NCBI GenBank assembly: GCA_049472395.1
Contig: JBLIRR010000012.1
Span: 55,777-119,776 of the forward strand
Source of the DNA: a bacterium
GTDB taxonomy: Bacteria; SZUA-182; DTGQ01; JBLIRR01
DNA: 64,000 bases
Reading direction: 5' to 3'
Within the stretch, counting starts at the first letter, position 1. Every line of letters starts with the position of its first letter. The translations under genes were made by a program, and so were the position numbers. Below, one piece after another: positions 1,299 to 60,692 of the stretch. The notes under the pieces are model-generated. The model saw nothing but the letters and a program-made list of their open reading frames with translations, did no database searches and was not told the DNA's origin.

Positions 1299-2723
1299 TT
1301 AGTGATGTCCGATTAAACGTTTTAACCTTTTATTGAGAGCAGATTGCGTTATACCTAAAAGGGATGCTGCTATTGATTGATTGTTTTTTGCTCTCTTTAA
1401 AGCTTCTTTAATGGCCAATTCTGAAATCTGACGCAGGGTTGGGAATTTATCTTTAATAATAAAGATCGGTTCATTTATTTTTCTGGCAGTATAATGTCCT
1501 GAGAGGTGAGAATCATTTATATGGCCAAGTTTTTCTCTAAAGCAGTTTAATGAGAGCGTGCCTCTGATATGCCTGCTGACGGCTTCAAATACCATTGCCT
1601 TTAATTCACGTATATTTCCTGGAAAATGATATGTTTCAAGTAGTGTGTATAATTGAGGGGGAATATTAGTGACCTTCACCCCGATCTCTTGAGATGCTTG
1701 ATGAATAAAATGATGTATGAGCACTGGTAAATCCTCAAAGCGCTCCCTGAGGGGAGGAACTTTAATTTCATAAACCCGAAGGCGATAATAAAGATCACTG
1801 CGAAATTTTTTCTGAACAACCAAATCACTTAAATTTTTATTCGTCGCGGTAATAATACGTGCATTGGCCCGTTCGACGAAATCTGAGCCGAGAGGATAAT
1901 ATTCGTGTGTTTCAAGAAGACGCAACAGCTTTATTTGTGAGGAAGCACTGAGGTCTCCAATCTCATCAAGAAAAAGAGTGCCGAATGCTGCTTTTTTGAT
2001 GAGCCCCTCACGGACAGTATCTGCACTTGTAAATGCACCTTTTTTATGTCCAAAGAGGGTATCGGCAAATACACTATCATCTAAACCCGCTGCATTAACC
2101 ACGATATAGTTGCCTTTCCTTCCGCTCAAGGAGTGAATACATTGTGCAATAAGTTCTTTTCCCGTGCCTGATTCACCCGAAATTTGAATGGGAAGGTTTG
2201 TTTTTGATATGGACTCAACGTAGAGAAATAATTTTTTCATTGAATCACTTGTAGTAATGATATTGGAGAATATTTTAGGATGTTTAAGTATATGTGAAAA
2301 AAAGTATTGTTTTAAATTAAGGTTTTCTTCTCTCAATTCCCTGATCTTCAGCGCATTTGTTACTGCAGTGATAAGTTTTTGATTCTCAATTGATTTGACT
2401 AAATAATCAGATGCCCCCATCTTCATGCATCGTATGGCTGTTTCAACTTCATTAAGACCAGTTATAATAATAATTGAGGTATCTGGAAAATCCTCTTTTA
2501 TTATGGGAAGTAATTTCTCTCCTGAAATATACGGCATAGTTAAGTCAAGCAGGACTAAGCCAACCTTCTTCTCATTTATAATTTCAATTACCTGTGTGCT
2601 TTCATTGCAGCATAATATATTGTTCATTCCTGCTGCTTTGAGCACTCGGCTAAGGCTTACTAAAATCTGGGTTTCATCATCTACAATTAATATAGGATTT
2701 AAGGGATATAATGTGTCATTCAT
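1299..2723 (-). CDS. Sigma-54-dependent response regulator (NtrC family)
   Basis: N-terminal receiver domain (ILIVDDE...), AAA+ sigma-54 activator motifs GESGTGKE and GAFTSA, C-terminal HTH; 8-nt overlap with upstream kinase gene. Confidence 0.9.
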   Translation of the reverse strand: MNDTLYPLNPILIVDDETQILVSLSRVLKAAGMNNILCCNESTQVIEIINEKKVGLVLLDLTMPYISGEKLLPIIKEDFPDTSIIIITGLNEVETAIRCMKMGASDYLVKSIENQKLITAVTNALKIRELREENLNLKQYFFSHILKHPKIFSNIITTSDSMKKLFLYVESISKTNLPIQISGESGTGKELIAQCIHSLSGRKGNYIVVNAAGLDDSVFADTLFGHKKGAFTSADTVREGLIKKAAFGTLFLDEIGDLSASSQIKLLRLLETHEYYPLGSDFVERANARIITATNKNLSDLVVQKKFRSDLYYRLRVYEIKVPPLRERFEDLPVLIHHFIHQASQEIGVKVTNIPPQLYTLLETYHFPGNIRELKAMVFEAVSRHIRGTLSLNCFREKLGHINDSHLSGHYTARKINEPIFIIKDKFPTLRQISELAIKEALKRAKNNQSIAASLLGITQSALNKRLKRLIGHH

Positions 2724-5570: not shown

Positions 5571-7898
5571 TCAATATTTTCCGAATTCATTATCATCAAG
5601 AGCTATGATCTTTTTGGGATCAACCTTGACAACTCCTATATTATGCATATTCTCGCCACCTGTGCCATGGAGCTGGCCGGTGCTATGAGCAGGGAGAGAC
5701 CTGACTTTATCAGATGGCCTCCTCGTAGGTGCTTGAGCATACATTTGCCGCTGGTGTTGATAATTCTTCAGGGTAAAGTGCTGGAGCAATCCTTTTAATT
5801 GATTGGCCTGGCTTGATAATTCCTCAGCAGCAGATGCCCCCTCTTCAGCATTGGCAGTCGCCTGCTGAGTTACTTGGTCTATCTGACTAAGCCCCTGATT
5901 AACCTGTGCTATCCCCTGAGCCTGATCATTTGATGCTGCGGCAATTTCGGCGACAAGATCCGAGGCCTTTGTGACACCTGTTAAGATTTCATTCAGAGCA
6001 TCGGCAGTTTTATTCGCAATGTCTGTGCCATTTTCTGTTTTCTTTACAGAGCCTTCGATAAGCTCTGCGGTCTCTTTGGCTGCCTTGGCACTTCGTCCGG
6101 CCAAATTCCTGACTTCTTCCGCCACAACTGCAAAACCTTTTCCGTGTTTTCCTGCCCGTGCAGCTTCTACCGCTGCATTGAGAGCGAGTAGATTTGTCTG
6201 GAACGCTATCTCATCAATGACCTTGATGATTTTCGAGATATTCTTACCTGATTCATTTATTTCACCCATGGCACTCACCATATCCTGCATCTGTGAATTT
6301 CCTCTTTCTGCTGCTGCTCGTGCTTCATTGGCGAGCTGATTTGCCTGATTAGCATTTTCCGCGTTTTGTTTTGTTTGAGATCCCATCTCATTCATAGAGC
6401 TTGTGATCTGCTCAAGGGAGGATGCTTGCTCTGTAGCTCCTTGTGAAACCGACTGACTTGAGTCGGAAACCTGCTGTGAACCTGATGCGATTTGTTCCAC
6501 TGATAAGCTGATCTGTCCCATAATATTGTTAAGATCACTATTCATTTTTATTAAGGCTGTTCCTATAACGTCCTTCTCATCCTTTCGTTTGGCATCAAAG
6601 GATAAATCCCCTTCGGCAAGCTTTTGTAAAGACCCGACAAATTCATATTGAAGATAATCTGCAAAGTGATCCATGGCCATGGCCATTTGGCCTATTTCAT
6701 CCTTATCTTCTATATTGAGGCGCATATCAAGATGGCCAGTGCTCATCTCCTTAATCATGTCAACAGTTTTATTGAGCGGGTTTACAATGCTGCGGGTAAT
6801 AATTAAGGCAGCAAAGATCCCCGCAATGATGGCAAGAAGAGAGATAAGAGGCACCACCACTAAAGTCTTATCAATCTTTTGCCCCATCTGCGTTGTTGCA
6901 GAACTCGCCATTTCAGTGAGCCTGTCCCTGATCCTTCCCAGAACCGCAAGCGTCTCCTCAGCGGCAGTCTCTGTTTCTTCCTGCATAATATGCATCGCCT
7001 CTTCAATTGATGCTTCGGCCTCTTTTTGGGCAATCATTGACTTATGATACCTCTCCCCTGCTTCTTTAAATGAATTGAGGCTGTTTTGTATACTGCTTAG
7101 AGTAGGGTGAAGCCCTGATATTCCTTCGATAAGGCTTGCCCAGGAGGAAATCCCCTCTTCAACTGAGCGAAGCTGCTCTTTATACGTAGCCCATTGTTCA
7201 TTAGTCGGAGTAATAGCAAGCTCTGCTGCTTCCGAGCGCAGTATGAGAAATGGAGCAATAACGCCTTCATTCATCTCCATATCAATTTCTCCCCATTTCA
7301 CTATAGCCGCTATATTTCCTCCCTGTTCAGCCTTCTCTTTTGCAGGATCAATAACATTTTCCATTCCCCTGTCAAGTGTTTCAGTGAATTTTTGAGCTAT
7401 TCTATCCCATTCTTCCCGAACCTCCTCTTGAATTTCCTGGGCTCTCATATAGTCTTCCCACTTGTAAAGGTTTTTAATTTTTATAGCTGATGCATGCAGT
7501 CGGTGATGGGGCTCCTCAACCTCTCGGAGAAGGCGGGCTATTTCAGGATCTTCTGCGGCGATCTCCCGGGCATCCTCTCCATAGAGCCACTGGCCGAAGC
7601 CGCACTTACGGTCATCTGTTTCAACATCAAGGCTGGTGACCTTATCATCTGCAAACATATTATTGACTCTACCCATCCACCGGACATGATCTATGATTCT
7701 CTGAAGAATTTCCGCTTGCAGGTGATCATGTTCCACAACTTCATGAGCCAAATGGTCAACAGAGCGGAAGTTGACATAACACATACCCCCGATAAGGGTC
7801 AGAAGAACAAGTATCACCCCGAATCCACATCCAAGTTTTGCAGAAAGTCTCATATTTTTAAACATGGCTGTAAGCTCCTTTCTTTGTTGTGGTATCAA
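5571..7898 (-). CDS. Methyl-accepting chemotaxis protein with CZB-like motif in the N-terminal sensor region
   Basis: Two TM segments flanking a ~300-aa domain, HAMP, MCP signalling domain ([19 protein letters not shown]); HxxxW...CGFGQW...HHRLH spacing matches the chemoreceptor zinc-binding signature; true start may be the internal MFKNMRL. Confidence 0.9.
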
Positions 7899-11969: not shown

Positions 11970-14054
11970 TTACCTTGTCCTTACTTTATATCCAACTTCG
12001 ATAATGCCACCAGCGCAGTCCCCTGGAATCTCAGCCTTGGAAAATCCTTTCTCCACTTCTTGAATATTTGCTTTACCGAGAAGATTACGTTCATCCTTAA
12101 AGATATTAAATTTCATGCCGGGGAAAATTCCTTTTTCCGTTCCCGTATCTGTATGGAACGTTTTTCCATTTTTTGCGATGATAGTCCCTGTACATAAAGG
12201 AAAAGAGTCCCGAAATTTCATTGAAAGACCGGAAATAATTAATGAAAGGTCATCGATGGTCTCAGAGGGGCTAAATACATCGTGATAGAGACGAATAAGA
12301 CCAGTATCAACTTCGATGAACCTTGCGAGTATCTCAATTCCATCCTCTCTTGTCGTGACGTATCCATATATTATTCCTTCTGCAGTTGTTATTTTGCCTA
12401 TCTGGTGCGCTTCAAGGCCCTGGATACTTTTCTCCATTATTATTTTGGGTAGTTTTTCCCGTTCGACCAAGGTAAAACGCCCCTGTTCTGAAAAAGATTC
12501 AATGGTCTTATTATAGATATAAGGAATAGTGGATTCATCATTCCTCATGCCATCACTCTCAAAAGGGAGTATAGCCAGTATCATCTTTTCTTCACTTTTA
12601 AAGATTTTTTCTCGCGGAACTTTCTGTATATAATGATGCGCTTCATCTTGATTTCCTAATCTATCTTCTACCAAAAGATTGAGCACTGTCATTTTTTCTT
12701 TAAGATGTATCATCTTATTAATATAATAAATATTATACCTTAACAAAATTGTGCGAACAAGTTCTATATATTTTTGAGGATTCTTGATTTCAGGAGTACG
12801 TGTTCGAAGTTTATCCATATTATTTTCCACAATCGTTTCTATTTCCGATATATGAAATAGTGTCCTATCATTGAGCTTTATCTGTTGTATTCCATTATTA
12901 GTCCGAATAATGCCCTCTAAAAAGATGTCGTGGTAATAGGTGGCAAAATCTTCTTTTGGTGGGTAGGTGATCTCAATGGAGATATCTCTTTTTGAGGGTA
13001 TCATCGCCAAAGTTGATGGCTCTCCATCATGAGAGGGCATATTCTGAGCAATTTTAACCCATTTTCCCGGTGGCGGCGTAAGAGGTATTTCCCCTTGAGT
13101 GATATTGCCGGCGTTATCTTTTGTCCAAAATGTAGCCGTCTTTAAGCCCTTAGTAAGAGGAATTGAGTGTTCAATAAGACACACCTGGTCAAGACCTATC
13201 GTGGGTACTTCTTTCTGATTCAGTGTAAAGGATTGAATACCGGACAGGTCATACACTATTGCGGTAAGAAGCACTTGATCTATTTTACCGCTTTTGTCAG
13301 GGTAGATTATATCTGCGATTACTATGGGTCCTTGTTGATCAAGGAAAATACGAATAGCCTTTTCTGCTTCTTTGCCGACTAGATCTTTGGTGGTGATGCT
13401 CACAGTATTCCAGCCCGCCTCAAGATCGACTGATACATGAAAGGGGAAGATAGGTTCGGCTAATTCAATAAACAGGGGATCGTGGTTTACTGAAACAGCA
13501 GCTATATAGTGATCATCATGTGCCATTCCGGTAACGCTGAAAGTAGTTTTATTCGTTCGGTATAGTTCTTTTTGCATTTCCAAATCGATCCCGGGAGGTT
13601 GTATATCCAATCCCGATGCAATGAGAGATGCCTTGCGAGTTTGATTAAGATAATATTTGGCCCTTGCCGAGCCACTGTGGCTCATAGATAATTCCAGTTC
13701 TTCTAATGCGTCCTCGATTAGTCCAAGATGGAAATAGCATATACCCAGTTCGCGATGAGGGAAATATCCTTCGCGGAAATGCATTCCATATGCCCTGGCA
13801 TATGGTTGATCTTGGTAACGAAGTTCAATAGCATCCTTGAATTCTGAAATCGCATATTCCCAACATCCTCCCCGCATACAGCTTATGCCCCGTCTATAGC
13901 ATGCATCCCAGGTTACCACATGAATCTTGTCTTGAGTAATACAATATTTCTTACCATCTTTGATACAGATTCTCGCCTTTTGCATAGAACATGCATAGAT
14001 AAGAATGATCATCCCTAGAAGCACAACATTTTTTATTTTGTCGTGTTTATACAT
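11970..14054 (-). CDS. TPR-containing lipoprotein with TolB-N-like and C-terminal beta module; partner of the cyclase-CHAT protein
   Basis: Lipobox-type signal peptide (IYACS); TPR-like helices near the N-terminus; LAILPFESDG segment and a C-terminal module resembling the C-terminus of the upstream gene product; 9-bp gap to the upstream gene. Confidence 0.7.
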   Translation of the reverse strand: MYKHDKIKNVVLLGMIILIYACSMQKARICIKDGKKYCITQDKIHVVTWDACYRRGISCMRGGCWEYAISEFKDAIELRYQDQPYARAYGMHFREGYFPHRELGICYFHLGLIEDALEELELSMSHSGSARAKYYLNQTRKASLIASGLDIQPPGIDLEMQKELYRTNKTTFSVTGMAHDDHYIAAVSVNHDPLFIELAEPIFPFHVSVDLEAGWNTVSITTKDLVGKEAEKAIRIFLDQQGPIVIADIIYPDKSGKIDQVLLTAIVYDLSGIQSFTLNQKEVPTIGLDQVCLIEHSIPLTKGLKTATFWTKDNAGNITQGEIPLTPPPGKWVKIAQNMPSHDGEPSTLAMIPSKRDISIEITYPPKEDFATYYHDIFLEGIIRTNNGIQQIKLNDRTLFHISEIETIVENNMDKLRTRTPEIKNPQKYIELVRTILLRYNIYYINKMIHLKEKMTVLNLLVEDRLGNQDEAHHYIQKVPREKIFKSEEKMILAILPFESDGMRNDESTIPYIYNKTIESFSEQGRFTLVEREKLPKIIMEKSIQGLEAHQIGKITTAEGIIYGYVTTREDGIEILARFIEVDTGLIRLYHDVFSPSETIDDLSLIISGLSMKFRDSFPLCTGTIIAKNGKTFHTDTGTEKGIFPGMKFNIFKDERNLLGKANIQEVEKGFSKAEIPGDCAGGIIEVGYKVRTR

Positions 14055-14063
14055 GAGGATTCC

Positions 14064-16877
14064 CTAGAGCTTTTTTTCAGTCCCTTTTATAGGATCTCCA
14101 GATTCAAATGGTACGTTTTGCTCAAGGATTTCTGCTACAGCCGTGCTTTCGTTTACCTTTTTTATGAGGATATACCCTTTTGTGGTTCTTTCTTCTGGTG
14201 TATCTAATTCCGGTGTATTTAAGACCGTGAAGACCTGATCCTGCCTCACTCCCATATTATGTCCAAGATTAATCTTGATCTCATCTCCTTCCAAAGACAT
14301 TATTCTACCTTTGAGAGGGTAATGGGTTGCGAGATTCTCGATGGTTTTACGGACCAATTCGGAGGCAATAGTTTCTAAGCTCTCTGTCTCAGGAAAGAAT
14401 GGTTGAGAGAATGCAGTGAGTATTTCAGTACTGTGTGTTTCTACAAGGCGAAGGCTTATTTCCGATTGTAATCCTTCACGTGTTTTATATGAGACGGGCT
14501 CAGGGAAAAGAATGATGCGGGCAGAGAGCAGTGTATAGGCATCCTGTAATGATTTTGATGAAAGTGTGGGAATCCCAATCTGAAGCTCCTGCAATATTCC
14601 TGCTATCCTTTTTCGCTCAAGTACGGACAAGCCAATTGAGGTGGTCTGAGTAAATACCTCAATCATCCTATTGAAAAGCTTTTCATAATGACCCTTCAAG
14701 GATACAACAGCAGGATCATCCAGTTCCTGCCAGTTCGGTGCAATGATACAAATGGAGATAGGCTGTGATGTCCATGTATCTGACTGGCTCTTGGTTGCGA
14801 AAAAACCTTTATTGTTAAATTGTTGGGTAAGCTGATCTTGATAGGAAGAAAGAATTTGAATAGTCTGTGTTATTTTTTGAAAATCAGGGTCTATTCCGGC
14901 TTCTTGAATGTAAGAGGGGAAAATGTTCGGAAGATTTCCATGAGGATCTTTATATGATTTTTTAAGACCCATATAGGCGTTTGTAATAAGAAGCATAATG
15001 ATAAGAGAGAGGCTTGCTCCCGTGAGCACTTGTTTCCATGACCAGGTTTTTTTATTGCTCTCTTTTATGTTTAAATCTCTATGAGCTGTCTCTGACCTCA
15101 CCATGCAATATTTTTTCTCATCCGGCTCTGGCTCCTTGATTTGTTCCATATAATTCGATGTGGGATCTCCGTACAGGACATAGCTTGCCCAGATAATCGC
15201 CTCTTCTTCATATTGATTAATTAATGAGAGCCTAGCTTTTCTTAAAGCTTCTCCTATGCTCATGCCAGAGAGAATGTTTTCATAGAATTCTAATGCAAAA
15301 TAACTTCCTTGGTTATCAGGAATTTCCCAGAATGTCCCAATGTAATGTTTTACTCCTGCTAAAAGAAACGCATTGGCCAATCCGAAGATTTCCTCCTGAA
15401 ATTGTTCTTTTAAGGTCCATTCATTAGTGCGTGCTGATTGACATGCATTCGAGAAAATAAGGGCGGGCATCTTTGAGGTGGCTATTGTGCTGATATCCCG
15501 TGCTGTGATGTTTTTACCTCCGGTTTTCCATCCACTCTCCTCGGGGCTTGTGTGATTAAACTCGGCATGACCTGCAAAATGGACAATATCAAATTGTTCA
15601 AATTTTTTTTTCAGATATTCACAGGTCAGGTTTTTTGAGCGTAAGGTAATATTTATGAAATTCTTTTCTCTCAGCATGAAGTCACGAATCCGAGAGCCTT
15701 CTGCATATGCATTCTTCAGATCCCCTTCCAGGTCTGCTATGATCAGCATATTTAATGGCTTTGACAATACCCGTGATTTACTTCCATTCACTGTCTGTTT
15801 GGTTTTTACTAATCTCCCCATATTGAAACGTTGACAAAGGAATTGATGGCCATCAAAAATAAGCTCCCAAGGGATCTGGACGAGTTGGTCATCGATATGT
15901 AAGGTTAAGTAATGCGCCCTTGTTTCGTCAAGCTTTTTCTTAAGGGAAGGGGAAAACAGTTTTTCATAAAAGGCCTGCCCAGTCTCTCTTAGTTTTAGGA
16001 GAAGCTCACGCTTGAAAATACCCAGGCGAAGCGCTTTATTAAAGGTATCGACCATCTCATTGCATTCTTTATTAATCCACTCCATGGAGATTGGGATCTG
16101 TTCATAATGACGAATAGTGCTTTCTTCTCCGGCCATGTGCTCATTAGAGCTAATTTTTAAATGATCCCTCTCACAAAGCACTTCGAGCCGAAAGACCATT
16201 ATGGATTTTTTCATTCTCTCTTCATCGGGTTCTTCACTAGCGCGCAGTTTCGGCTTTCCCCAGATGACCTGGAAAAGCTTTAAAGATTGAGCCCTACCTC
16301 TTGGAAGAGAGTATTTATCATACATACAGGTAATGTCCTCAGAGGATTTGACTTTTTCATAGACCTTCTTTGAGATAATTATCTGATAAGCCTTAGCGTG
16401 AGATTGGATACGTGATGCTTGACTTACCGCATTACCATAAATATCTGACTCCTTCATATAAACCTCATCCCAACTTATGCCGATCCTCACATGTATTTTA
16501 GAAATTTCTCCTATGATGGTGTTATAGGCATATAATCTTTTCTGAATTGCTATTGAGGCTTTTACTGCCGAGAGAGGATCTGGGAAATAGGCCATAAGCT
16601 CATCTCCCAGGGTTTTATATATCGTCCCCTTATTGCCTGCAATGATAGGCATGACGATCTGCCTGAGTTTTTGCACAAGACTTTTCCCGCACACATCACT
16701 GCGGGTATCAATAAAGTTTGGATAGTCATAAATGTTGGCAAAAAGAATAGCGAGTTTCTTCTTGTATTGTCCATTTAAAATTTCATCAATAAATTCTTTC
16801 CCCACTAATATTTCTTCAATCATGCCAGGGAATTTTCCAAAGAATACTTCATGATCTCTTGGCTTTAATTCCTCCAT
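14064..16877 (-). CDS. Membrane-anchored class III nucleotidyl cyclase domain / CHAT protease domain fusion protein
   Basis: N-terminal cyclase homology motifs (LAILFANIYD, YKTLGDELMAYF, RIGISWDEV, YGNAVSQASRIQS); CHAT motifs (QIPWELI, HFAGHA, FSNACQSA, AGVKHYIGTFWEIPD); one TM helix; ~300-aa C-terminal extracytoplasmic region. Confidence 0.8.
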   Translation of the reverse strand: MEELKPRDHEVFFGKFPGMIEEILVGKEFIDEILNGQYKKKLAILFANIYDYPNFIDTRSDVCGKSLVQKLRQIVMPIIAGNKGTIYKTLGDELMAYFPDPLSAVKASIAIQKRLYAYNTIIGEISKIHVRIGISWDEVYMKESDIYGNAVSQASRIQSHAKAYQIIISKKVYEKVKSSEDITCMYDKYSLPRGRAQSLKLFQVIWGKPKLRASEEPDEERMKKSIMVFRLEVLCERDHLKISSNEHMAGEESTIRHYEQIPISMEWINKECNEMVDTFNKALRLGIFKRELLLKLRETGQAFYEKLFSPSLKKKLDETRAHYLTLHIDDQLVQIPWELIFDGHQFLCQRFNMGRLVKTKQTVNGSKSRVLSKPLNMLIIADLEGDLKNAYAEGSRIRDFMLREKNFINITLRSKNLTCEYLKKKFEQFDIVHFAGHAEFNHTSPEESGWKTGGKNITARDISTIATSKMPALIFSNACQSARTNEWTLKEQFQEEIFGLANAFLLAGVKHYIGTFWEIPDNQGSYFALEFYENILSGMSIGEALRKARLSLINQYEEEAIIWASYVLYGDPTSNYMEQIKEPEPDEKKYCMVRSETAHRDLNIKESNKKTWSWKQVLTGASLSLIIMLLITNAYMGLKKSYKDPHGNLPNIFPSYIQEAGIDPDFQKITQTIQILSSYQDQLTQQFNNKGFFATKSQSDTWTSQPISICIIAPNWQELDDPAVVSLKGHYEKLFNRMIEVFTQTTSIGLSVLERKRIAGILQELQIGIPTLSSKSLQDAYTLLSARIILFPEPVSYKTREGLQSEISLRLVETHSTEILTAFSQPFFPETESLETIASELVRKTIENLATHYPLKGRIMSLEGDEIKINLGHNMGVRQDQVFTVLNTPELDTPEERTTKGYILIKKVNESTAVAEILEQNVPFESGDPIKGTEKKL

Positions 16878-41288: not shown

Positions 41289-41317
41289 TTGACAAAACAT
41301 TAATTTTTTGTTATAAT
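41289..41317 (+). promoter_or_regulatory. Perfect consensus sigma-70 promoter
   Basis: TTGACA (41289-41294), 17-nt spacer, TATAAT (41312-41317); about 180 nt upstream of the large gene at 41501. Confidence 0.6.
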
Positions 41318-41500
41318 AGAAAGCCTTTTCTATTAGTATGTCGTAGAAATACTCAAAGGGAGGGGGTGTAAATGTAAGATTTAAAAGAAAGATAAAGACT
41401 CACTATACTCTATGCGTGCATTAATCCTTATTTTCTACTAGTCTTTATCTTTGAATTCTATTATAAGGTATATTTTTAAATTATTCAAGGGGGGGAGAAA

Positions 41501-44500
41501 ATGAAAAAGTTTAAAAGAGCATATTTTACAAGTTTTATAATTATCTCTTTATTATTGTGTGGATTAATATCCCGTGTAAATAATGTCCGAGCTGACGATA
41601 ATGTGTTTAATTATGATATTGGGGATTATCAGTGGGCACCCGGCTTCGGGTGGGGTGGATGGTCCACACGGGGGAGTTCTCCCAATGATGCGTGGGGCTC
41701 TTCAACGTTCTCTTCTTTTGATTTTTCACCAGGAAATAAGTTCGGGGGCTTTTTTACTAATATCTTAAGTGAACTTGTCTGTCCTTATGTGCCGGGTGTA
41801 ACGCTCGGCCCTTGGGTTACTTGCCCTCCGACTCCATCTCCCCCTCCTTGGCCCTCACCCGGCGAAGAGAATGAGGTATTTAGCAAAGAATATGAAATAT
41901 CGAAAGGTAAATATGGATACGGATGGGACTATTGTTGGGGTGGAAATTGTGGCACAACAGTTGATTCTTCAATGAGTGCAACAGATACTTTTTCTGTTCC
42001 CGAAAAAGGTATTTATTATGTAAGGATTTACAATGGCGGAGAAGCAAGTTATAAAGGTGACCGTGTATCCTCCGGTGAGATAAAAATCAATAATAAGAAG
42101 GTAATAAAAAGTAATGATTTTAACAAGAACGAGACATTCATTGAAGTTCAATTAGAGTTAAAAAAGGGGATAAATACGCTCTATGTAAAGATAAATGGAG
42201 CCCCGGGTGCTTTTATAGTGGTGAAGATAGTCAAGATAGTGGAACCTGTGCCTCCCCCTGTCATTGAATTCGAGGACGCAAAACTTGAGGCTGCGGTTCG
42301 CGCTGCTCTTGGAATTGGAAAGAATGAGCCTCTCACAGAGGACCTTCTTCTTGGTCTCACTGATTTATATGTGGATTCACTGGGTATTAAAAAACTTGGA
42401 GGGATAGAGTATTGCACAAATCTTGAATTTCTTAGCGCCTCGGATAATAAAATAAGTGACGTGGGTCCTCTCGCATTCCTTCATAATCTCATATGGCTCC
42501 ATCTTGCGCGAAACAATATCTCCAATGTAAGCGCATTGGAATATCTTACTGAGCTTGAGTGGCTCAATGTATCCAATAATACAATAACCAGCTTATTTCC
42601 CCTTATAGATTGTGATAATCTAGAGTGGCTCAATCTTTCCAATAATCCTATCAATCCTTATGATTTAAGTGATTTATCTCATATAGATCATTTATATTTT
42701 ACTAATGATCCGGCTGTCTATGATAGAACCACAGGAATGATGGCGACTGATTCGCGTGATGATAATTTTACGTTTACCTTTGAAGATCTCCTTGCGCATC
42801 CGGCAGATAGCGCTACCTTGACGCTCACTATCGAAGGAGATGTCGATGAATCGCGAGAGTATTTGAGTGTGTATTCGGGAAATCGCGATTTGGGTGATAT
42901 TTTTAAGAGCGGAAATCTAAAAGAATGTGATGGATTTAATGAGGCACAGATAGAAATTACTCCAGATGATCTGGAGTCCTTAATGCATAAGGGGAAAATT
43001 ACCTTTACTTTAATACCATCGAATTATGTTGATTTCAGTGAGTGTCATCTAAGAGCTTATCTGCGATTGGAATATGAAAGACAAGCGGTTGTTAAGCAGT
43101 ATGTTTTTGGTGATGAAACCGGAACCGCAACCTCCGATGGTGATCCTCTATCCTTTACCTATAAAGATATTCCTTTAGATCCACTCCATAATGTCAATTT
43201 AATTGTCAATGTCAATGGCGATGTGGGAAATCCCAGTGAGTATATTACGGTTAAGGCAGGCACTACGAAACTCGGAGATGTATATAAAACTGGGGGTCTT
43301 TTAGACTGCAGTGGATTTTATGAAGAAGTCATTCAAATAACCAAGGAACAGGTACAATCATTAACCACCGATGGAAAGATTACCTTTACCCTCGTGCCAT
43401 CGAGCGCTGTCGGGTATAGTGCGTGCAATCTGAGCGCTTATCTGAAACTTGAGTATGTATCGTATGTTTTTGGCCAGGAAACTGATACTATACTATCGGA
43501 CGGAGGACTATCCTTTACGTATAGAGATATTCCGGAAGACCCGGTTCGTGGCTGTATTTTAGAATTGAATGTTGAGGGTGATTTGGATAGTAGCAATGAA
43601 TATATCACTGTGAAAGCAGGAAGTACAATAATCGGACAGGTATATAAAGACGGAGATCCTAAGGAATGTAATGGTTTTAATGAAGAGCAGCTTGAAATAA
43701 GCGCAAGTAAGTTACAATCATTAACCAGTGGCGGAGAGATTACCTTTACATTAGTGCCATCGAGCGCTGTCGGATTTGGCACCTGTGATCTAAGTGTATA
43801 TGCAAGATTGGCATATGAAAGTGAGCCGCCCGTTACTCCCTTTCTGTTTGGTAAGCAAACTCCTACGGTAAATTCTGATGAGGGAGGAGTGTCCTTTACC
43901 TATAGTGGAATTCCTGTAGATCCTCTTCATGCGGTGAATCTTATTGTCAAAGCAAAGGGAGATTTGGGAGGTACCAATGAATATATTACTGTGAAAGCAG
44001 GCACGATCGTGCTTGGGAATTTATATAATACTCAAGGCCAGACAGACTGCGGTGAGCTCAAAGAAGAACAGATAACCATAAGCAAGGATGAATTGAAGTC
44101 CCTCACCACTTATGGTAAGATTACTTTTACATTGGTTCCCTCCAGTGCGGTGAGCTATGGTTCATGTGATCTGAGTGTAAATGTTAAGCTTGACTATGTA
44201 TCCTATGCTTTTGGGGAAGCAAGTGCTACGGTGTCATCTGATGGTGCATTATTTTTTACATTCAGAGAAATTCCGGCCAATCCTCAGCATCCTGTCAAAG
44301 TGGTTGTCAAAGCAAAGGGGGATTTGGGTGCCACGAATGAATACCTCACGATAAAAGCGGGTAGTACTGAACTTGGAAATTTATATACAACCTCCGACCA
44401 GACAGACTGTGGTGATTTTAAAGAAGTATCCATAACCTTGAGTAAGGATAAGGTGAAGTCCCTTGCGATTGATAATAAGATAACTTTTACATTGGTTCCA

Positions 44501-46432
44501 TCGAGCGCTGTCGGTTATGGTTCTTGTGATTTAAGTGCCAATTTAACACTCGTATATGAAAGTGAGCCACCCGTTCCTACCTATATTATTGGCGAAACAA
44601 CAGCGACAGTAAATTCCGATGGTGATGTAATATCTTTTACTTACGAGGAAATTCCTTCAAATCCGCTCCGTAATCTTACTATCATTGTCAAAGCAAAGGG
44701 GGATTTGGGCGACACGAATGAGTATATCACCTTAAAAGCAGGCGCCACTATACTTGCGGATTTGTATAGAGCACCTGATCTAGTAGATTGTGGCGAATTT
44801 GAAGAAGAGAAGATAATCATAAGTAAGAGTATGGTGCAATCCTTAACAGTGAATGGGCAGATTACCTTTTCATTAGTGCCATCTGGTGCGGTGAGTTATG
44901 GCACATGTGATCTAAGTGCGAATCTCACACTGGTATATGTAGGTGAACCCTCTATAGTGCCCGGTGTGTTTGGCAAGAAAACAGCCACGGCGACATCCGA
45001 CCAAGAACTCTCCTTTGCCTATAATGATGTTCCTGCGAATCCGCTTGAGAATTGTATCTTATCTGTTTTTTTCAAAGGGGATGTAGATCATTCCAGTGAA
45101 TTTATCACTGTCAAAGCGGGAAGTACTGTGCTCGGGTATTTATATAAAACAGGGAACCCAACGAGCTGTGATGTGTTTAATGAGGGGCAAATATTCATAA
45201 GTAAAAGTGCATTAAAGAACATGACAACCAACGGGGAAATAACCTTTACCTTAATCCCCTCTGCAGAGGTTAATATTTGCGATTCAAGCGCCTATATAAA
45301 ACTTGCATATGAAAGCCAACCCCCCGATACTACCTCTGTGTTTGGCAAGAAGACAGCAACGGTGACATCCGATGGTGTAATATCTTTTACCTATAGAGAG
45401 GTTCCTGCCCATCCACTCGATAATTGTATTTTATCCGTTTATTTCAAAGGGGATATAGATCAACCCAGTGAATATATCACTGTCACAGCAGGGGGGACTG
45501 AGCTTGAGGATTTGTATGCAACGGGAAATCCAACGAGTTGTGATGTGTTTAATGAAGGGCAAATATTCATAAGCAAAAGTGCATTAAAGAACATGACAAC
45601 CGACGGGGAAATAACCTTTACCTTAATTCCCTCTGAAGAAGTTAATTATTGTGATTCAAGCGCCTATATAAAACTTACATATGAAAATTACCTTCCTCCT
45701 GATTCATGTGTATTTGGACAAAAAACCCCCATCATGATCTTTGAGAATGAACTCTCCTTTATTTATAAGGGAATTCCTTCATCCCCGCATGATGACGTTA
45801 TCTTAATTCTTAATGCAGATGGGGATTTAGGCAGTACCAATGAGTTTATTACCGTGAAAGCAGGTGATACCGTGCTTGGCGATATATATAGAACCGCAGG
45901 TCTGACAGATTGCAGTGGACTCAAAGAGGATATTATAACAATTGGGAAGGATGAACTGGCTTCGCTCACAACAAATGGTGAAATAACATTTACATTAATT
46001 CCTTCCGGCGCGGTGAGTTATGTCTCGTGTGATCTGAGGATTTCTGCAGAACTCACATATGTATCCTATATATTTGGTGAGCAGACACCGACGGAGACCT
46101 CGGAGGGTTCAATATCTTTTAACTACAGAGGGATTCCTTCAGATTTGCTTGATGATGTCATTTTAATTGTCAACGCAGATGGAGATTTGGGTAAAAGCTA
46201 TGAGTTTATTACCGTGAAAGTAGGGAGTATAGAGCTTGGAGATTTATATAATACGGAGACTCTCACAGACTGCAGTGGATTTCATGAAGGATTTATAAAT
46301 ATTACCAAGGATGAATTGAAATCTTTAGCCACCGAAGATGGGAAGATTACATTTACATTAGTCCCATCGATTGCTGTTGATTTCAGTTCTTGTCCCCTAA
46401 GGGCCAATGTAATCCTCGACTATCAATCATAG
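41501..46432 (+). CDS. Giant secreted repeat protein: signal peptide, LRR region, about ten tandem ~120-aa Cys-containing repeats
   Basis: Signal peptide; Gly/Trp-rich N-terminal region; leucine-rich repeats (LxxLxLxxNxIS pattern); tandem units each with ITFTLVPS, EYITVKAG and two conserved Cys; GGGGGGAG RBS. Confidence 0.85.
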   Translation: MKKFKRAYFTSFIIISLLLCGLISRVNNVRADDNVFNYDIGDYQWAPGFGWGGWSTRGSSPNDAWGSSTFSSFDFSPGNKFGGFFTNILSELVCPYVPGVTLGPWVTCPPTPSPPPWPSPGEENEVFSKEYEISKGKYGYGWDYCWGGNCGTTVDSSMSATDTFSVPEKGIYYVRIYNGGEASYKGDRVSSGEIKINNKKVIKSNDFNKNETFIEVQLELKKGINTLYVKINGAPGAFIVVKIVKIVEPVPPPVIEFEDAKLEAAVRAALGIGKNEPLTEDLLLGLTDLYVDSLGIKKLGGIEYCTNLEFLSASDNKISDVGPLAFLHNLIWLHLARNNISNVSALEYLTELEWLNVSNNTITSLFPLIDCDNLEWLNLSNNPINPYDLSDLSHIDHLYFTNDPAVYDRTTGMMATDSRDDNFTFTFEDLLAHPADSATLTLTIEGDVDESREYLSVYSGNRDLGDIFKSGNLKECDGFNEAQIEITPDDLESLMHKGKITFTLIPSNYVDFSECHLRAYLRLEYERQAVVKQYVFGDETGTATSDGDPLSFTYKDIPLDPLHNVNLIVNVNGDVGNPSEYITVKAGTTKLGDVYKTGGLLDCSGFYEEVIQITKEQVQSLTTDGKITFTLVPSSAVGYSACNLSAYLKLEYVSYVFGQETDTILSDGGLSFTYRDIPEDPVRGCILELNVEGDLDSSNEYITVKAGSTIIGQVYKDGDPKECNGFNEEQLEISASKLQSLTSGGEITFTLVPSSAVGFGTCDLSVYARLAYESEPPVTPFLFGKQTPTVNSDEGGVSFTYSGIPVDPLHAVNLIVKAKGDLGGTNEYITVKAGTIVLGNLYNTQGQTDCGELKEEQITISKDELKSLTTYGKITFTLVPSSAVSYGSCDLSVNVKLDYVSYAFGEASATVSSDGALFFTFREIPANPQHPVKVVVKAKGDLGATNEYLTIKAGSTELGNLYTTSDQTDCGDFKEVSITLSKDKVKSLAIDNKITFTLVPSSAVGYGSCDLSANLTLVYESEPPVPTYIIGETTATVNSDGDVISFTYEEIPSNPLRNLTIIVKAKGDLGDTNEYITLKAGATILADLYRAPDLVDCGEFEEEKIIISKSMVQSLTVNGQITFSLVPSGAVSYGTCDLSANLTLVYVGEPSIVPGVFGKKTATATSDQELSFAYNDVPANPLENCILSVFFKGDVDHSSEFITVKAGSTVLGYLYKTGNPTSCDVFNEGQIFISKSALKNMTTNGEITFTLIPSAEVNICDSSAYIKLAYESQPPDTTSVFGKKTATVTSDGVISFTYREVPAHPLDNCILSVYFKGDIDQPSEYITVTAGGTELEDLYATGNPTSCDVFNEGQIFISKSALKNMTTDGEITFTLIPSEEVNYCDSSAYIKLTYENYLPPDSCVFGQKTPIMIFENELSFIYKGIPSSPHDDVILILNADGDLGSTNEFITVKAGDTVLGDIYRTAGLTDCSGLKEDIITIGKDELASLTTNGEITFTLIPSGAVSYVSCDLRISAELTYVSYIFGEQTPTETSEGSISFNYRGIPSDLLDDVILIVNADGDLGKSYEFITVKVGSIELGDLYNTETLTDCSGFHEGFINITKDELKSLATEDGKITFTLVPSIAVDFSSCPLRANVILDYQS
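42760..46432 (+). repeat. Tandem array of about ten diverged ~360-bp coding repeats
   Basis: Recurring protein motifs imply a ~360-bp DNA period; two adjacent units are ~95% identical over ~120 nt (near 45150 and 45510). Confidence 0.75.
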
Positions 46433-46562
46433 GGAATGTAGAATTGTTTTTTATTTTGCCTTTGTAAAGTTCATTTCAATATATTATAATACACACTTAA
46501 TTATATGGTATGTGAAAAATGGGATAATTTTTTAACAGAGTGGCAGAATTATACAAACAATA

Positions 46563-57500: not shown

Positions 57501-58451
57501 ATGTCTTATAAAGATAATGAAATGGAATTGTTAAATATCGTGAATAATAATGAGAGTTATTTTTCTTCGGAAGAACCTGTTGAAGTGTCGGAAGAACCTA
57601 TTGAAGATCCGAAAGCTTCTGAGACTAATAATGAGATTAAGATTTATTTGCGTGAAATAGCAAAAGTACCGCTTCTGTCAAGAAAAGAAGAGAAGGAATA
57701 TGCTTTAAGGATTGCCCAGGGTGATACGTATGCGAAATCTGAAATGACGAAGGCAAATTTACGCCTTGTGGTGAATATTGCAAAAAAATACATTAACTGT
57801 GGCCTTCCTTTTTTGGATTTGATACAGGAGGGGAATCTCGGATTAATGAAAGCTGTTGAAAAATTTGATGTGAAGCGTAAATGTAAATTTAGTACCTATG
57901 CAATATGGTGGATTAGGCAAGGAATTACCCGTGCAATAGCTGAAAAGTCACAAACTATAAGGGTCCCGGTGCACACAATGGATGCGGTTAAATCATTGCT
58001 TAAACATACTCAAAAATTTCTGCAAAATAATCACAGAGAGCCTGATAATAAAGAATTAGCAAAATCCATGAAAATATCAATAGAGAAAGTAGAAGAGTTA
58101 AAAAATATTATTAAGAGTCCTATTTCTATTGAAGAACCCATTAATGAATTAGGTAATTATAATATTGTTGATTATATAGAAGATAAACAGTATGTTTCAG
58201 CGTTGGACAGGTTAATTAATGATAATTTAAGTGAGCAGATTCGAAAGGTATTACATACCTTACCAGAAAGAGAAAGAAATGTAATTAAACTGCGATTTGG
58301 CATAGGAGTGCCCACCACAAAGACATTAAATGAGGTTGGGGATCAGTTTCATTTATCACGGGAAAGGGTCAGGCAGCTTCAACAACGAGCCCTTGCCCGG
58401 CTTAAGGAACCTGAACGTTTAAAACCATTGTATGATTTCTTTGGAAATTGA
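57501..58451 (+). CDS. RNA polymerase sigma factor, sigma-70 family (group 1/2-like, RpoS-sized)
   Basis: Region 2 ([11 protein letters not shown]...[26 protein letters not shown]), region 3 (IRVPVHTMD), region 4 HTH; AAAGGGGAGAG RBS. Confidence 0.85.
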
Positions 58452-59162: not shown

Positions 59163-60692
59163 ATGCCAAAAAAAGAATCCAAGATGTTGGTGCCCTATCA
59201 TCCAACTATAGAACAGCTGAGGCCTTTAGTCTTAGGGAAAAAGCTCAACATAGACAGATCAATAATAGACAATCTGGATACGAATATAATAATACTTGAT
59301 AAAAATATGAATATCACGCTCATGAATCGTGCTGCTGAAAAAACATTAGGTGTCCTTTTCTCAGAGTTAAAAGGGAAAAGCTTTCTCTCCTTGAAATCAC
59401 ACTCAATGAAAAATGAGCTGAGCATAGACCTTAATGAAGTGATTAAAAATCAGAAGACTGTGAATAAGCGTGAGATTCGCTATTTATCCCCGGATAATAC
59501 TGCCCATTTTATTGATTTTAATTATATGCCAATAATCAATGATGATGGTGAGGTTGAGGGGATACTTTCATTTGGGAAGGATGTGACAGAGGCAGTTAAT
59601 CAAGAAATTATTCAACAGGAGACAAATAATAAACTCAAGGAACTGCTCAAGCAACTGTCTAAAAAGGATAAGCAGATAAAAACATTACAAAATCAATTAC
59701 GGGATAGATATAAATTTCATAATCTGATTGGAAAGAATTATCTGATGCAGAATATTTTTGATTTAATAGAAAAGATAGCCCCCACCGACTCAACCGTTCT
59801 TATTACAGGGGAAACAGGCGTGGGCAAAGAATTAGTCGCCAAGGCAATTCATTACAATAGTCTTCGCAGAGATTACCCGCTTGTGAGTATCAATTGTGCG
59901 AGCCTTGTTGAAACTTTGTTGGAAAGCGAGCTTTTTGGTCATGTGAAAGGCTCCTTTACCGGGGCTATCAGGGATAAAAAGGGAAAGTTTGAGATTGCTG
60001 ATAAAGGTACTATATTCTTGGATGAGATTGGTGAAATTTCTTTTTCAACACAGGCGAAATTATTACGGGTCATTCAGGAAAAAGAAATTGAACGAATAGG
60101 TGATGAAAGAAAAATCAAGGTCGATATTCGAATCATTGCTGCCACTAACCAGGACCTTCTTGAAATGATTAAAAAAGGGAAGTTTCGCAAGGACCTCTTT
60201 TACAGATTAAATGTAATAAGCATCAAAATACCGCCTTTAAGGGATAGAATTGATGATATCCCTCTTTTGACTAAACATTTTATCACTCTCTTCAATAAAC
60301 GATATAATCAGAATATCAGAGAGATATCCCCGTTAGTGCAGAAAAAGCTCCTGAATTATTCCTGGCCGGGCAATGTGAGGGAATTGGAGGCAGTGTTGGA
60401 AAAAGCGATAATTTTAAGTTCATCCGATGTCATAAAAGAAGTTGACATTACCCCTGCCGATCATCCCGCTTCCCTCTATCTGTTGCCTCAGAATAAAGAA
60501 TCAGAGGAAGCGCTTACGTCTTATGATGAGGTGAAGGAACGAATAGATGAATTTGAAAAAAATTATTTCCTCACTGTATTTAAAAAATGTAAGGGAAGAA
60601 TAAACGATATCTCTGAGTTGACAGGATTAAACCGACGCACAATCTTAAATAAAGTGAAGAAATTCAATATTAATAAGAACGATTTTAAATAA
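59163..60692 (+). CDS. Sigma-54-dependent transcriptional activator with N-terminal PAS domain
   Basis: PAS region, AAA+ motifs GETGVGKE, GAFTGA, FRKDLFYRLNV, C-terminal HTH; GAGAGGAAC RBS. Confidence 0.9.
   Translation: MPKKESKMLVPYHPTIEQLRPLVLGKKLNIDRSIIDNLDTNIIILDKNMNITLMNRAAEKTLGVLFSELKGKSFLSLKSHSMKNELSIDLNEVIKNQKTVNKREIRYLSPDNTAHFIDFNYMPIINDDGEVEGILSFGKDVTEAVNQEIIQQETNNKLKELLKQLSKKDKQIKTLQNQLRDRYKFHNLIGKNYLMQNIFDLIEKIAPTDSTVLITGETGVGKELVAKAIHYNSLRRDYPLVSINCASLVETLLESELFGHVKGSFTGAIRDKKGKFEIADKGTIFLDEIGEISFSTQAKLLRVIQEKEIERIGDERKIKVDIRIIAATNQDLLEMIKKGKFRKDLFYRLNVISIKIPPLRDRIDDIPLLTKHFITLFNKRYNQNIREISPLVQKKLLNYSWPGNVRELEAVLEKAIILSSSDVIKEVDITPADHPASLYLLPQNKESEEALTSYDEVKERIDEFEKNYFLTVFKKCKGRINDISELTGLNRRTILNKVKKFNINKNDFK

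Follow-up and report, generated by a model that had tools for sequence, protein, structure and literature searches.

The window that we analyzed, a 64,000-nucleotide stretch of a contig from a bacterial metagenome-assembled genome (MAG), carries an intact, uninterrupted open reading frame (ORF) at 41501..46432 (+) that encodes a protein of 1643 aa. The mature product is predicted to be a Thr/Ser-rich protein of ~175 kDa with a pI of 4.3. The identical protein, encoded on a contig of 152.8 kb, is already deposited at NCBI as MGA1868874.1 ('MAG: leucine-rich repeat domain-containing protein [bacterium]'), with an annotation limited to the leucine-rich repeats (LRRs). No papers were found in the literature under the accession of the MAG. 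A sequence-only reading of this DNA had proposed a giant LRR protein with a Sec signal and about ten tandem Cys-containing units, and our analysis bears this out: the number of units is exactly ten, each is 120-127 aa long, and they follow one another head to tail.

The strong promoter noted earlier is of the sigma-70 type and precedes the gene at 41289..41317 (+), as TTGACA-17-TATAAT with the TG of an extended -10 element, and it matches the consensus at 12 of 12 positions. The two hexamers and the TG recur unchanged at the orthologous locus (L001), in a leader that has otherwise diverged around them. The 5' leader of ~175 nt (41325..41500, +) closes with a strong Shine-Dalgarno (SD) sequence, GGGGGGGAG, separated from the ATG by 4 nt, and the 30 nt of the leader proximal to this ribosome-binding site (RBS) are conserved at L001. 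Judged from the promoter and RBS consensus, the product may be abundant as a surface protein. A structured or riboswitch-like leader was ruled out, with no Rfam match in the region and a predicted fold less stable than those of shuffled sequences (z = +1.9). We also observed in the leader (41358..41379) an SD-like GGGAGGGGG box followed by a minimal ATG-TAA 'start-stop' ORF; this G-rich box is kept in the orthologous locus, but its ATG is not. Downstream of the giant gene (46433..46562), no intrinsic terminator was predicted and only a T-rich stretch was seen, and a promoter-like TTGTAA-17-TATAAT sequence (46462-46490) lies ahead of the next gene, which encodes a membrane protein of the LPG-synthase-TM family. 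Other gene neighbors encode HrpA, a HisA-like protein, RecJ, and PAS kinases, all with housekeeping or signaling functions, and no secretion-system or mobile-element genes were found near the giant gene.

The N terminus (aa 1-31; 41501..41593, +) reads as a Sec-type signal peptide, as had been proposed, with an MKKFKR n-region, a 17-residue hydrophobic core, and a predicted cleavage site after VRA (V-R-A at -3/-1) and before DD. The same layout occurs in the orthologue, P0001, and the protein is likely exported past the cytoplasmic membrane. The next segment (41594..41863, +) comprises a low-complexity G/F/S/W-rich stretch (aa 32-~79), then at aa ~80-112 a helix with a Cys-Pro loop, and finally a linker rich in Pro, as delimited by model confidence and conservation in P0001. 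The stretch at aa 32-~79 was modeled as disordered (pLDDT of <50 at model residues 1-43) and shows little conservation with P0001, whereas aa ~80-112 are conserved, containing a helix at residues 49-65 of the N-terminal model and a motif, F.NI..L.CPY.PG...G.W.TCP, common to both proteins. The label 'Gly/Trp-rich region' previously given to this part was thus only partly apt: residues 32-86 do include ten Gly and four Trp, along with eight Phe, eight Ser, six Asp, and four Asn, in a context modeled as disordered and poorly conserved in P0001. Ahead of the LRRs, we found an additional beta-jelly-roll (aa ~122-247; 41864..42241, +) that the sequence-only reading had missed. This domain is unrelated in sequence to the repeat unit, and its origin as a diverged copy of that unit was ruled out by an hhalign probability of 1%. 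A word-indexed search with the N-terminal region gave no match, not even to P0001, so that a limit of the index looks likelier than true absence.

The jelly-roll is followed by a typical bacterial LRR cap and approximately five 22-residue LRRs of the internalin type (aa 248-405; 42242..42715, +), with the LxxLxLxxN pattern of LRR proteins. In Pfam, the block at aa ~283-403 scored above the gathering threshold with both LRR_4 (42.2 bits versus a cutoff of 27) and LRR_8 (34.1 versus 27), both matching at aa 306-362, confirming the leucine-rich-repeat block noted before. The arrangement of a signal peptide, an N-terminal cap, 22-residue LRRs, and then a repeat region resembles that of the Listeria internalins InlA, InlB, and InlH and other bacterial LRR surface proteins. 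Models for InlA, InlH, and NEAT-LRR proteins showed local similarity to the LRRs (E values of 1e-12 to 1e-16) at 45-57 bits, against cutoffs of 1050-1600. The two class 1 internalin models, NF033189 (57.2 bits versus 1600) and NF033188 (44.6 versus 1050), aligned with the LRR region alone, and the protein did not qualify as a class 1 internalin. Unlike internalins, it lacks an Ig-like inter-repeat domain, B-repeats, GW modules, and an LPXTG motif; in place of the internalin repeats it has an unrelated array of jelly-rolls, with one more jelly-roll ahead of the LRRs.

The ten units of the array occupy aa 406-532, 533-652, 653-779, 780-899, 900-1026, 1027-1152, 1153-1276, 1277-1400, 1401-1520, and 1521-1643. 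On the forward strand, unit 1, the most divergent, lies at 42716..43096, units 2-6 lie at 43097..44956, with ESEPPV-type linkers after units 3, 5, and 6, units 7-8 lie at 44957..45700, and units 9-10 lie at 45701..46429. Regular-expression anchors for the EYITVKAG-like and ITFTLVPS-like motifs were found in all ten units, recurring every 120-127 aa. Full-length alignment of the units gave pairwise identities of 31-75% and 17 invariant columns, including two Cys residues that are 37-40 residues apart in every unit, in keeping with the two conserved Cys per unit first noticed from the sequence. Units 7 and 8 arose by a recent tandem duplication: they are 75% identical in protein sequence, share 84% DNA identity over 722 nt (44965..45686; 1.9 copies of a 372-nt period), and both lack two residues ahead of the second Cys. 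Since likeness at the DNA level is confined to this pair, the array appears to be old and diverged rather than an assembly-collapsed repeat. Collapse in assembly was ruled out by this divergence together with P0051, a fragment of 139 aa that an independent JGI contig encodes and that is 100% identical to aa 1505-1643, and the concern that the ORF might be broken by such a repeat has therefore been removed. The protein stops at the last strand of unit 10, and Pfam and NCBIfam detected no SLH, S-layer, Por_Secre_tail/T9SS, PEP-CTERM, or LPXTG anchor or sorting domain. Some units contain a third, unpaired Cys (aa 685, 1185, 1309, and 1403). In units 3, 7, and 8, this residue is in the strand before the GDLD loop within the motif [DGN]C-I-L, and in unit 9 it is close to the N terminus of the unit (aa 1403). 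Most P0001 units (2 and 4-9) carry the Cys at the strand position.

P0001, a protein of 1512 aa with nine units and 52% identity, was the sole full-length relative detected in a word-indexed search of 5.8 billion proteins. It is derived from another MAG, where its gene has HrpA as the upstream neighbor, as in the window. Scans of representative-genome contigs with the 1643-aa protein and with HrpA gave no match, and a pure head-to-tail array with an LRR head is known from only these two MAG proteins. All nine P0001 units matched the unit profile (E values of 1e-34 to 1e-49), and all ten units of the window protein fit the family signature. One-to-one orthology between the two arrays is limited to unit 1, with the other units nearer to units of the same protein. 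Units averaged 49% identity to one another within the window protein and 64% within P0001, compared with 50% across the two proteins, and identities among units Q4-Q9 of P0001 were 69-84%. This relatedness of units within each protein indicates that the two arrays expanded or were homogenized independently.

We attempted to assign the repeat unit to a cataloged sequence family. No Pfam or NCBIfam model covered the unit in scans of the whole protein, with only LRR-related matches above the cutoff, and scans against PHROGs and PADLOC returned nothing besides the LRRs. Among Pfam models for Ig-like/Big, cadherin, PKD, HYR, fn3, and CARDB domains, none matched the whole protein at an E value of ≤1 and none was consistent across 76 family members. 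A search of PDB sequences with profiles A1 and A2 gave nothing credible, the best match being TssB (E value of 0.024). The earlier impression that the unit is not a known adhesin repeat therefore holds in Pfam, NCBIfam, and PDB sequences, and a profile search with the repeat unit likewise placed it in no well-characterized sequence family. The sole Pfam model with recurrent faint similarity was YkcB_C (PF24878), the C-terminal domain of putative GT-C mannosyltransferases, which matched the whole protein at 24.7 bits (E value of 2.2e-5), under the gathering threshold of 27, and also faintly matched P0001. This model matched 4 of the 76 family members (E values of ≥0.044) over ~29 residues, suggesting a relationship to the unit that is remote at most. 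The PPC model (PF04151) did not match the repeat unit, and PPC or collagenase collagen-binding domains appear to be a distinct family because they occur as separate domains from the unit within the same proteins (P0060 and P0091).

When 1.84 billion representatives of clusters at 50% identity were searched exhaustively with a HMMER profile, 225 proteins matched at an E value of ≤1e-3, including 41 at ≤1e-10. A metagenome contig scan with profile A1 gave no match, and profile A2 detected a single weak match in the word-indexed search, for which we suspect a limit of the index. The family is defined by a signature over ~105-125 aa, GD[LF]D-x4-E[YF].TV ... G..LG..F..GG..C ... ADG.ITF.L.PS..V...C ... 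L.L.Y. The relatives are mostly giant secreted proteins from metagenomes, many of 2000-7000 aa, in which the matched regions are not covered by Pfam and whose names in the source databases are 'hypothetical' or are taken from other domains, as in 'CARDB domain-containing protein [Planctomycetaceae bacterium]'. Their partner domains are all extracellular and include M4, reprolysin, and trypsin peptidases, PPC, HYR (25 repeats), fn3, LTD, dockerin, and T9SS tails. The closest unit beyond the two LRR proteins (113 bits; ~41% identity) was observed in P0053, a 920-aa protein from a JGI metagenome, at aa 738-868, C-terminal to thermolysin-like M4 catalytic domains in the position usually taken by PPC or PKD domains.

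We predicted the structure of unit 4 (aa 780-899) by AlphaFold2 with a 76-sequence family alignment and obtained a model of eight strands and one short helix with a pLDDT of 94.7 and a pTM of 0.87. The top fold matches of this model were jelly-rolls rather than Ig-type sandwiches, and the unit is accordingly modeled as a beta-jelly-roll of the carbohydrate-binding module (CBM) or galactose-binding-like class. Matches included PNGase F-type domains (8.7-9.4), Cry11Aa domain III (8.9), CBM6/15/35/36 (7.5-8.7), collagenase collagen-binding/PPC domains (7.3-7.5), accessory domains of GH86 and GH115, and the SID1 ectodomain; CDTb, phage depolymerase, and tail-fiber domains were also among them. The jelly-roll is what the unit has in common with its fold kin, which comprise BcsB CBD-1/2, PNGase F domains, CBM6/15/35/36, and domain III of Cry toxins. 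Relative to CBM-like jelly-rolls, the unit shows sequence identities of 7-20%, no profile match, and Foldseek TM scores of ≤0.59, and it has its own signature, a predicted family-specific disulfide, and no obvious aromatic platform. The conserved aromatics of the unit follow an alternating, core-like pattern, and no CBM-typical platform stands out among them. The repeat unit thus represents a sequence family that has not been curated, with a fold that is well known, and the 'unknown type' assigned to it by the sequence-only reading stands in that no cataloged sequence family contains it but not with regard to its fold or to its distribution, as the domain occurs in at least 225 representative proteins.

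We examined 180 domains of the family from proteins other than the two with LRRs. Scored as present within 3 columns, the two Cys residues occurred together in 134 of these domains, neither occurred in 42, and only one occurred in 4 (Fisher p of ~8e-37, a value that ignores phylogeny), the co-occurrence expected of a disulfide pair. Cys71 and Cys110 are therefore predicted from the alignment to form a disulfide between two loops, one following the strand at residues 57-62 and the other preceding the last strand. In unit 4, they correspond to Cys850 and Cys889 of the whole protein. Together with the confident model, this pattern supports the disulfide-stabilized beta-sandwich that had been suggested for structure prediction. 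The loop between strands 3 and 4 (GD..-x5-E) contains the most conserved positions of the family, Asp42 (174 of 180 domains) and Glu48 (170 of 180), which in unit 4 are Asp821 and Glu827 of the whole protein. Judging from the comparable Ca2+ sites in CBM and PPC domains, the loop is probably a metal or ligand site, and the bound metal may be Ca2+. The predicted disulfide and the Asp42/Glu48 loop form a testable signature of the family.

Considering these features together, we favor, at somewhat short of an even chance, a reading in which the protein is a highly expressed, Sec-exported adhesin or matrix-binding protein whose LRR head binds a partner while its ten modules bind a polymer multivalently. 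The head, consisting of one jelly-roll and approximately five internalin-type LRRs, would recognize a partner. The ten C-terminal modules would be independent CBM-like jelly-rolls, each with one loop-to-loop disulfide, that are joined directly or via short Pro-rich linkers and may extend as a beads-on-a-string array, in the form of a rod of about 10 x 3-4 nm. Such an elongated array could make multivalent contacts with a repetitive polymer, be it a glycan or some other component of the matrix, and would add reach. This reading is suggested by relatives that place the domain beside peptidases, PPC, HYR, dockerin, and T9SS tails, which are positions typical of substrate or surface targeting, and by the near-invariant Asp42/Glu48 pair, the paired Cys residues, the high-confidence model of the unit, and the intact array of ten units. 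The perfect promoter and strong SD conserved in the orthologue point in the same direction, as does the fast evolution of unit number and sequence within each protein that is usual for surface repeat arrays. Counting against an adhesin are the missing aromatic platform typical of CBMs and the neighboring genes (HrpA, LPG-synthase-TM, HisA-like, and RecJ), which give no functional link. As the protein has no anchor or outer-membrane sorting signal and stops at unit 10, it could be either held at the surface or released.

The ten jelly-rolls might instead bind nothing and act as a passive stalk, serving as rigid, disulfide-stabilized spacers for the LRR head in the manner of Ig-like, Big, or HYR repeats. 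We consider this possible but on balance unlikely. Jelly-rolls as a fold class also serve as spacers, no conserved aromatic binding platform is evident, and HYR repeats are interspersed with the unit domain in the giant T9SS proteins among its relatives. The difference in unit number (10 versus 9) and the homogenization within each protein are likewise what would be expected if only length and stability were selected. However, the near-invariance of the Asp42/Glu48 loop (~97%) over 180 distant domains suggests a site rather than a scaffold alone, and in proteases the unit domain takes the position of a targeting module. Furthermore, the LRR head is N-terminal and the C terminus has no anchor, so that the array does not lie between an identifiable anchor and the head.

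A structural role in the envelope, with the protein self-assembling as an S-layer, sheath, or matrix scaffold and ranking among the most abundant of the cell, appears improbable. A consensus promoter, a long leader, and a strong SD are features of highly expressed S-layer genes, and the giant gene resembles these in its perfect, conserved sigma-70 promoter with an extended -10, its ~175-nt leader, and its strong SD; the size (175 kDa), pI (4.3), Thr/Ser-rich composition, and lack of a covalent anchor motif also fit. A promoter consensus is not a measurement of expression, however, and neither SLH and S-layer domains nor other self-assembly domains were detected in Pfam or NCBIfam. LRR heads are unusual among S-layer proteins, and only two full-length members were found in billions of proteins searched. 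We give a similarly low probability to a bolder form of the adhesin reading, in which the unit would be an uncataloged, disulfide-locked, metal-dependent lectin or adhesion module and its ten-fold array, expressed from a consensus promoter, would form the major self-assembling or matrix-crosslinking surface layer of a deeply branching bacterium; if so, this module would have a wide but sparse distribution among the giant proteins that uncultured bacteria secrete. Least probable is a secreted effector or toxin-like protein with an LRR that targets a host or prey protein and jelly-rolls that serve as repeats for receptor binding, like those of Cry domain III, CDTb, and phage receptor-binding proteins: the fold matches to Cry11Aa domain III, CDTb, and phage depolymerase and tail-fiber domains and the local similarity of the LRRs to internalins would suit it, but the internalin models scored far below their cutoffs, Pfam and NCBIfam revealed no catalytic or pore-forming domain, PHROGs and PADLOC added nothing to the LRRs, and the housekeeping context is without nearby secretion-system or mobile-element genes.

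The 1643-aa protein is a candidate for a dominant extracellular protein and, as such, a handle on the surface biology of its source organism. No current concept is challenged by it, since there are many adhesins built of repeated, novel beta-sandwich modules. The domain family is rare, with ~225 clusters at 50% identity, and is not covered by Pfam (2025), NCBIfam (2026), or the PDB; many of its giant secreted proteins now carry no label other than 'hypothetical', 'LRR', or 'CARDB'. A new family entry could be started from alignment A2 together with the high-confidence model.

Other observations concern the remainder of the window. The source lineage is very poorly sampled, and ten of ten window proteins that we looked up were singletons at 90% identity, all from one NCBI MAG. 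The window is rich in signaling genes, with several PAS histidine kinases and hybrid kinases, sigma-54 activators at 1299..2723 and 59163..60692, an MCP at 5571..7898, and a sigma-70 family factor at 57501..58451. A protein of 937 aa encoded at 14064..16877 (-) combines an adenylate/guanylate cyclase domain (aa 38-184) with a CHAT/C25 caspase-like protease domain (aa 298-573) and shows weak PADLOC similarity to the Pycsar cyclase PycC and to BovA (E value of ~1e-6). The gene for a 694-aa TPR protein at 11970..14054 (-) adjoins it, and the two could be a nucleotide-signal/protease module of a defense or signaling type.
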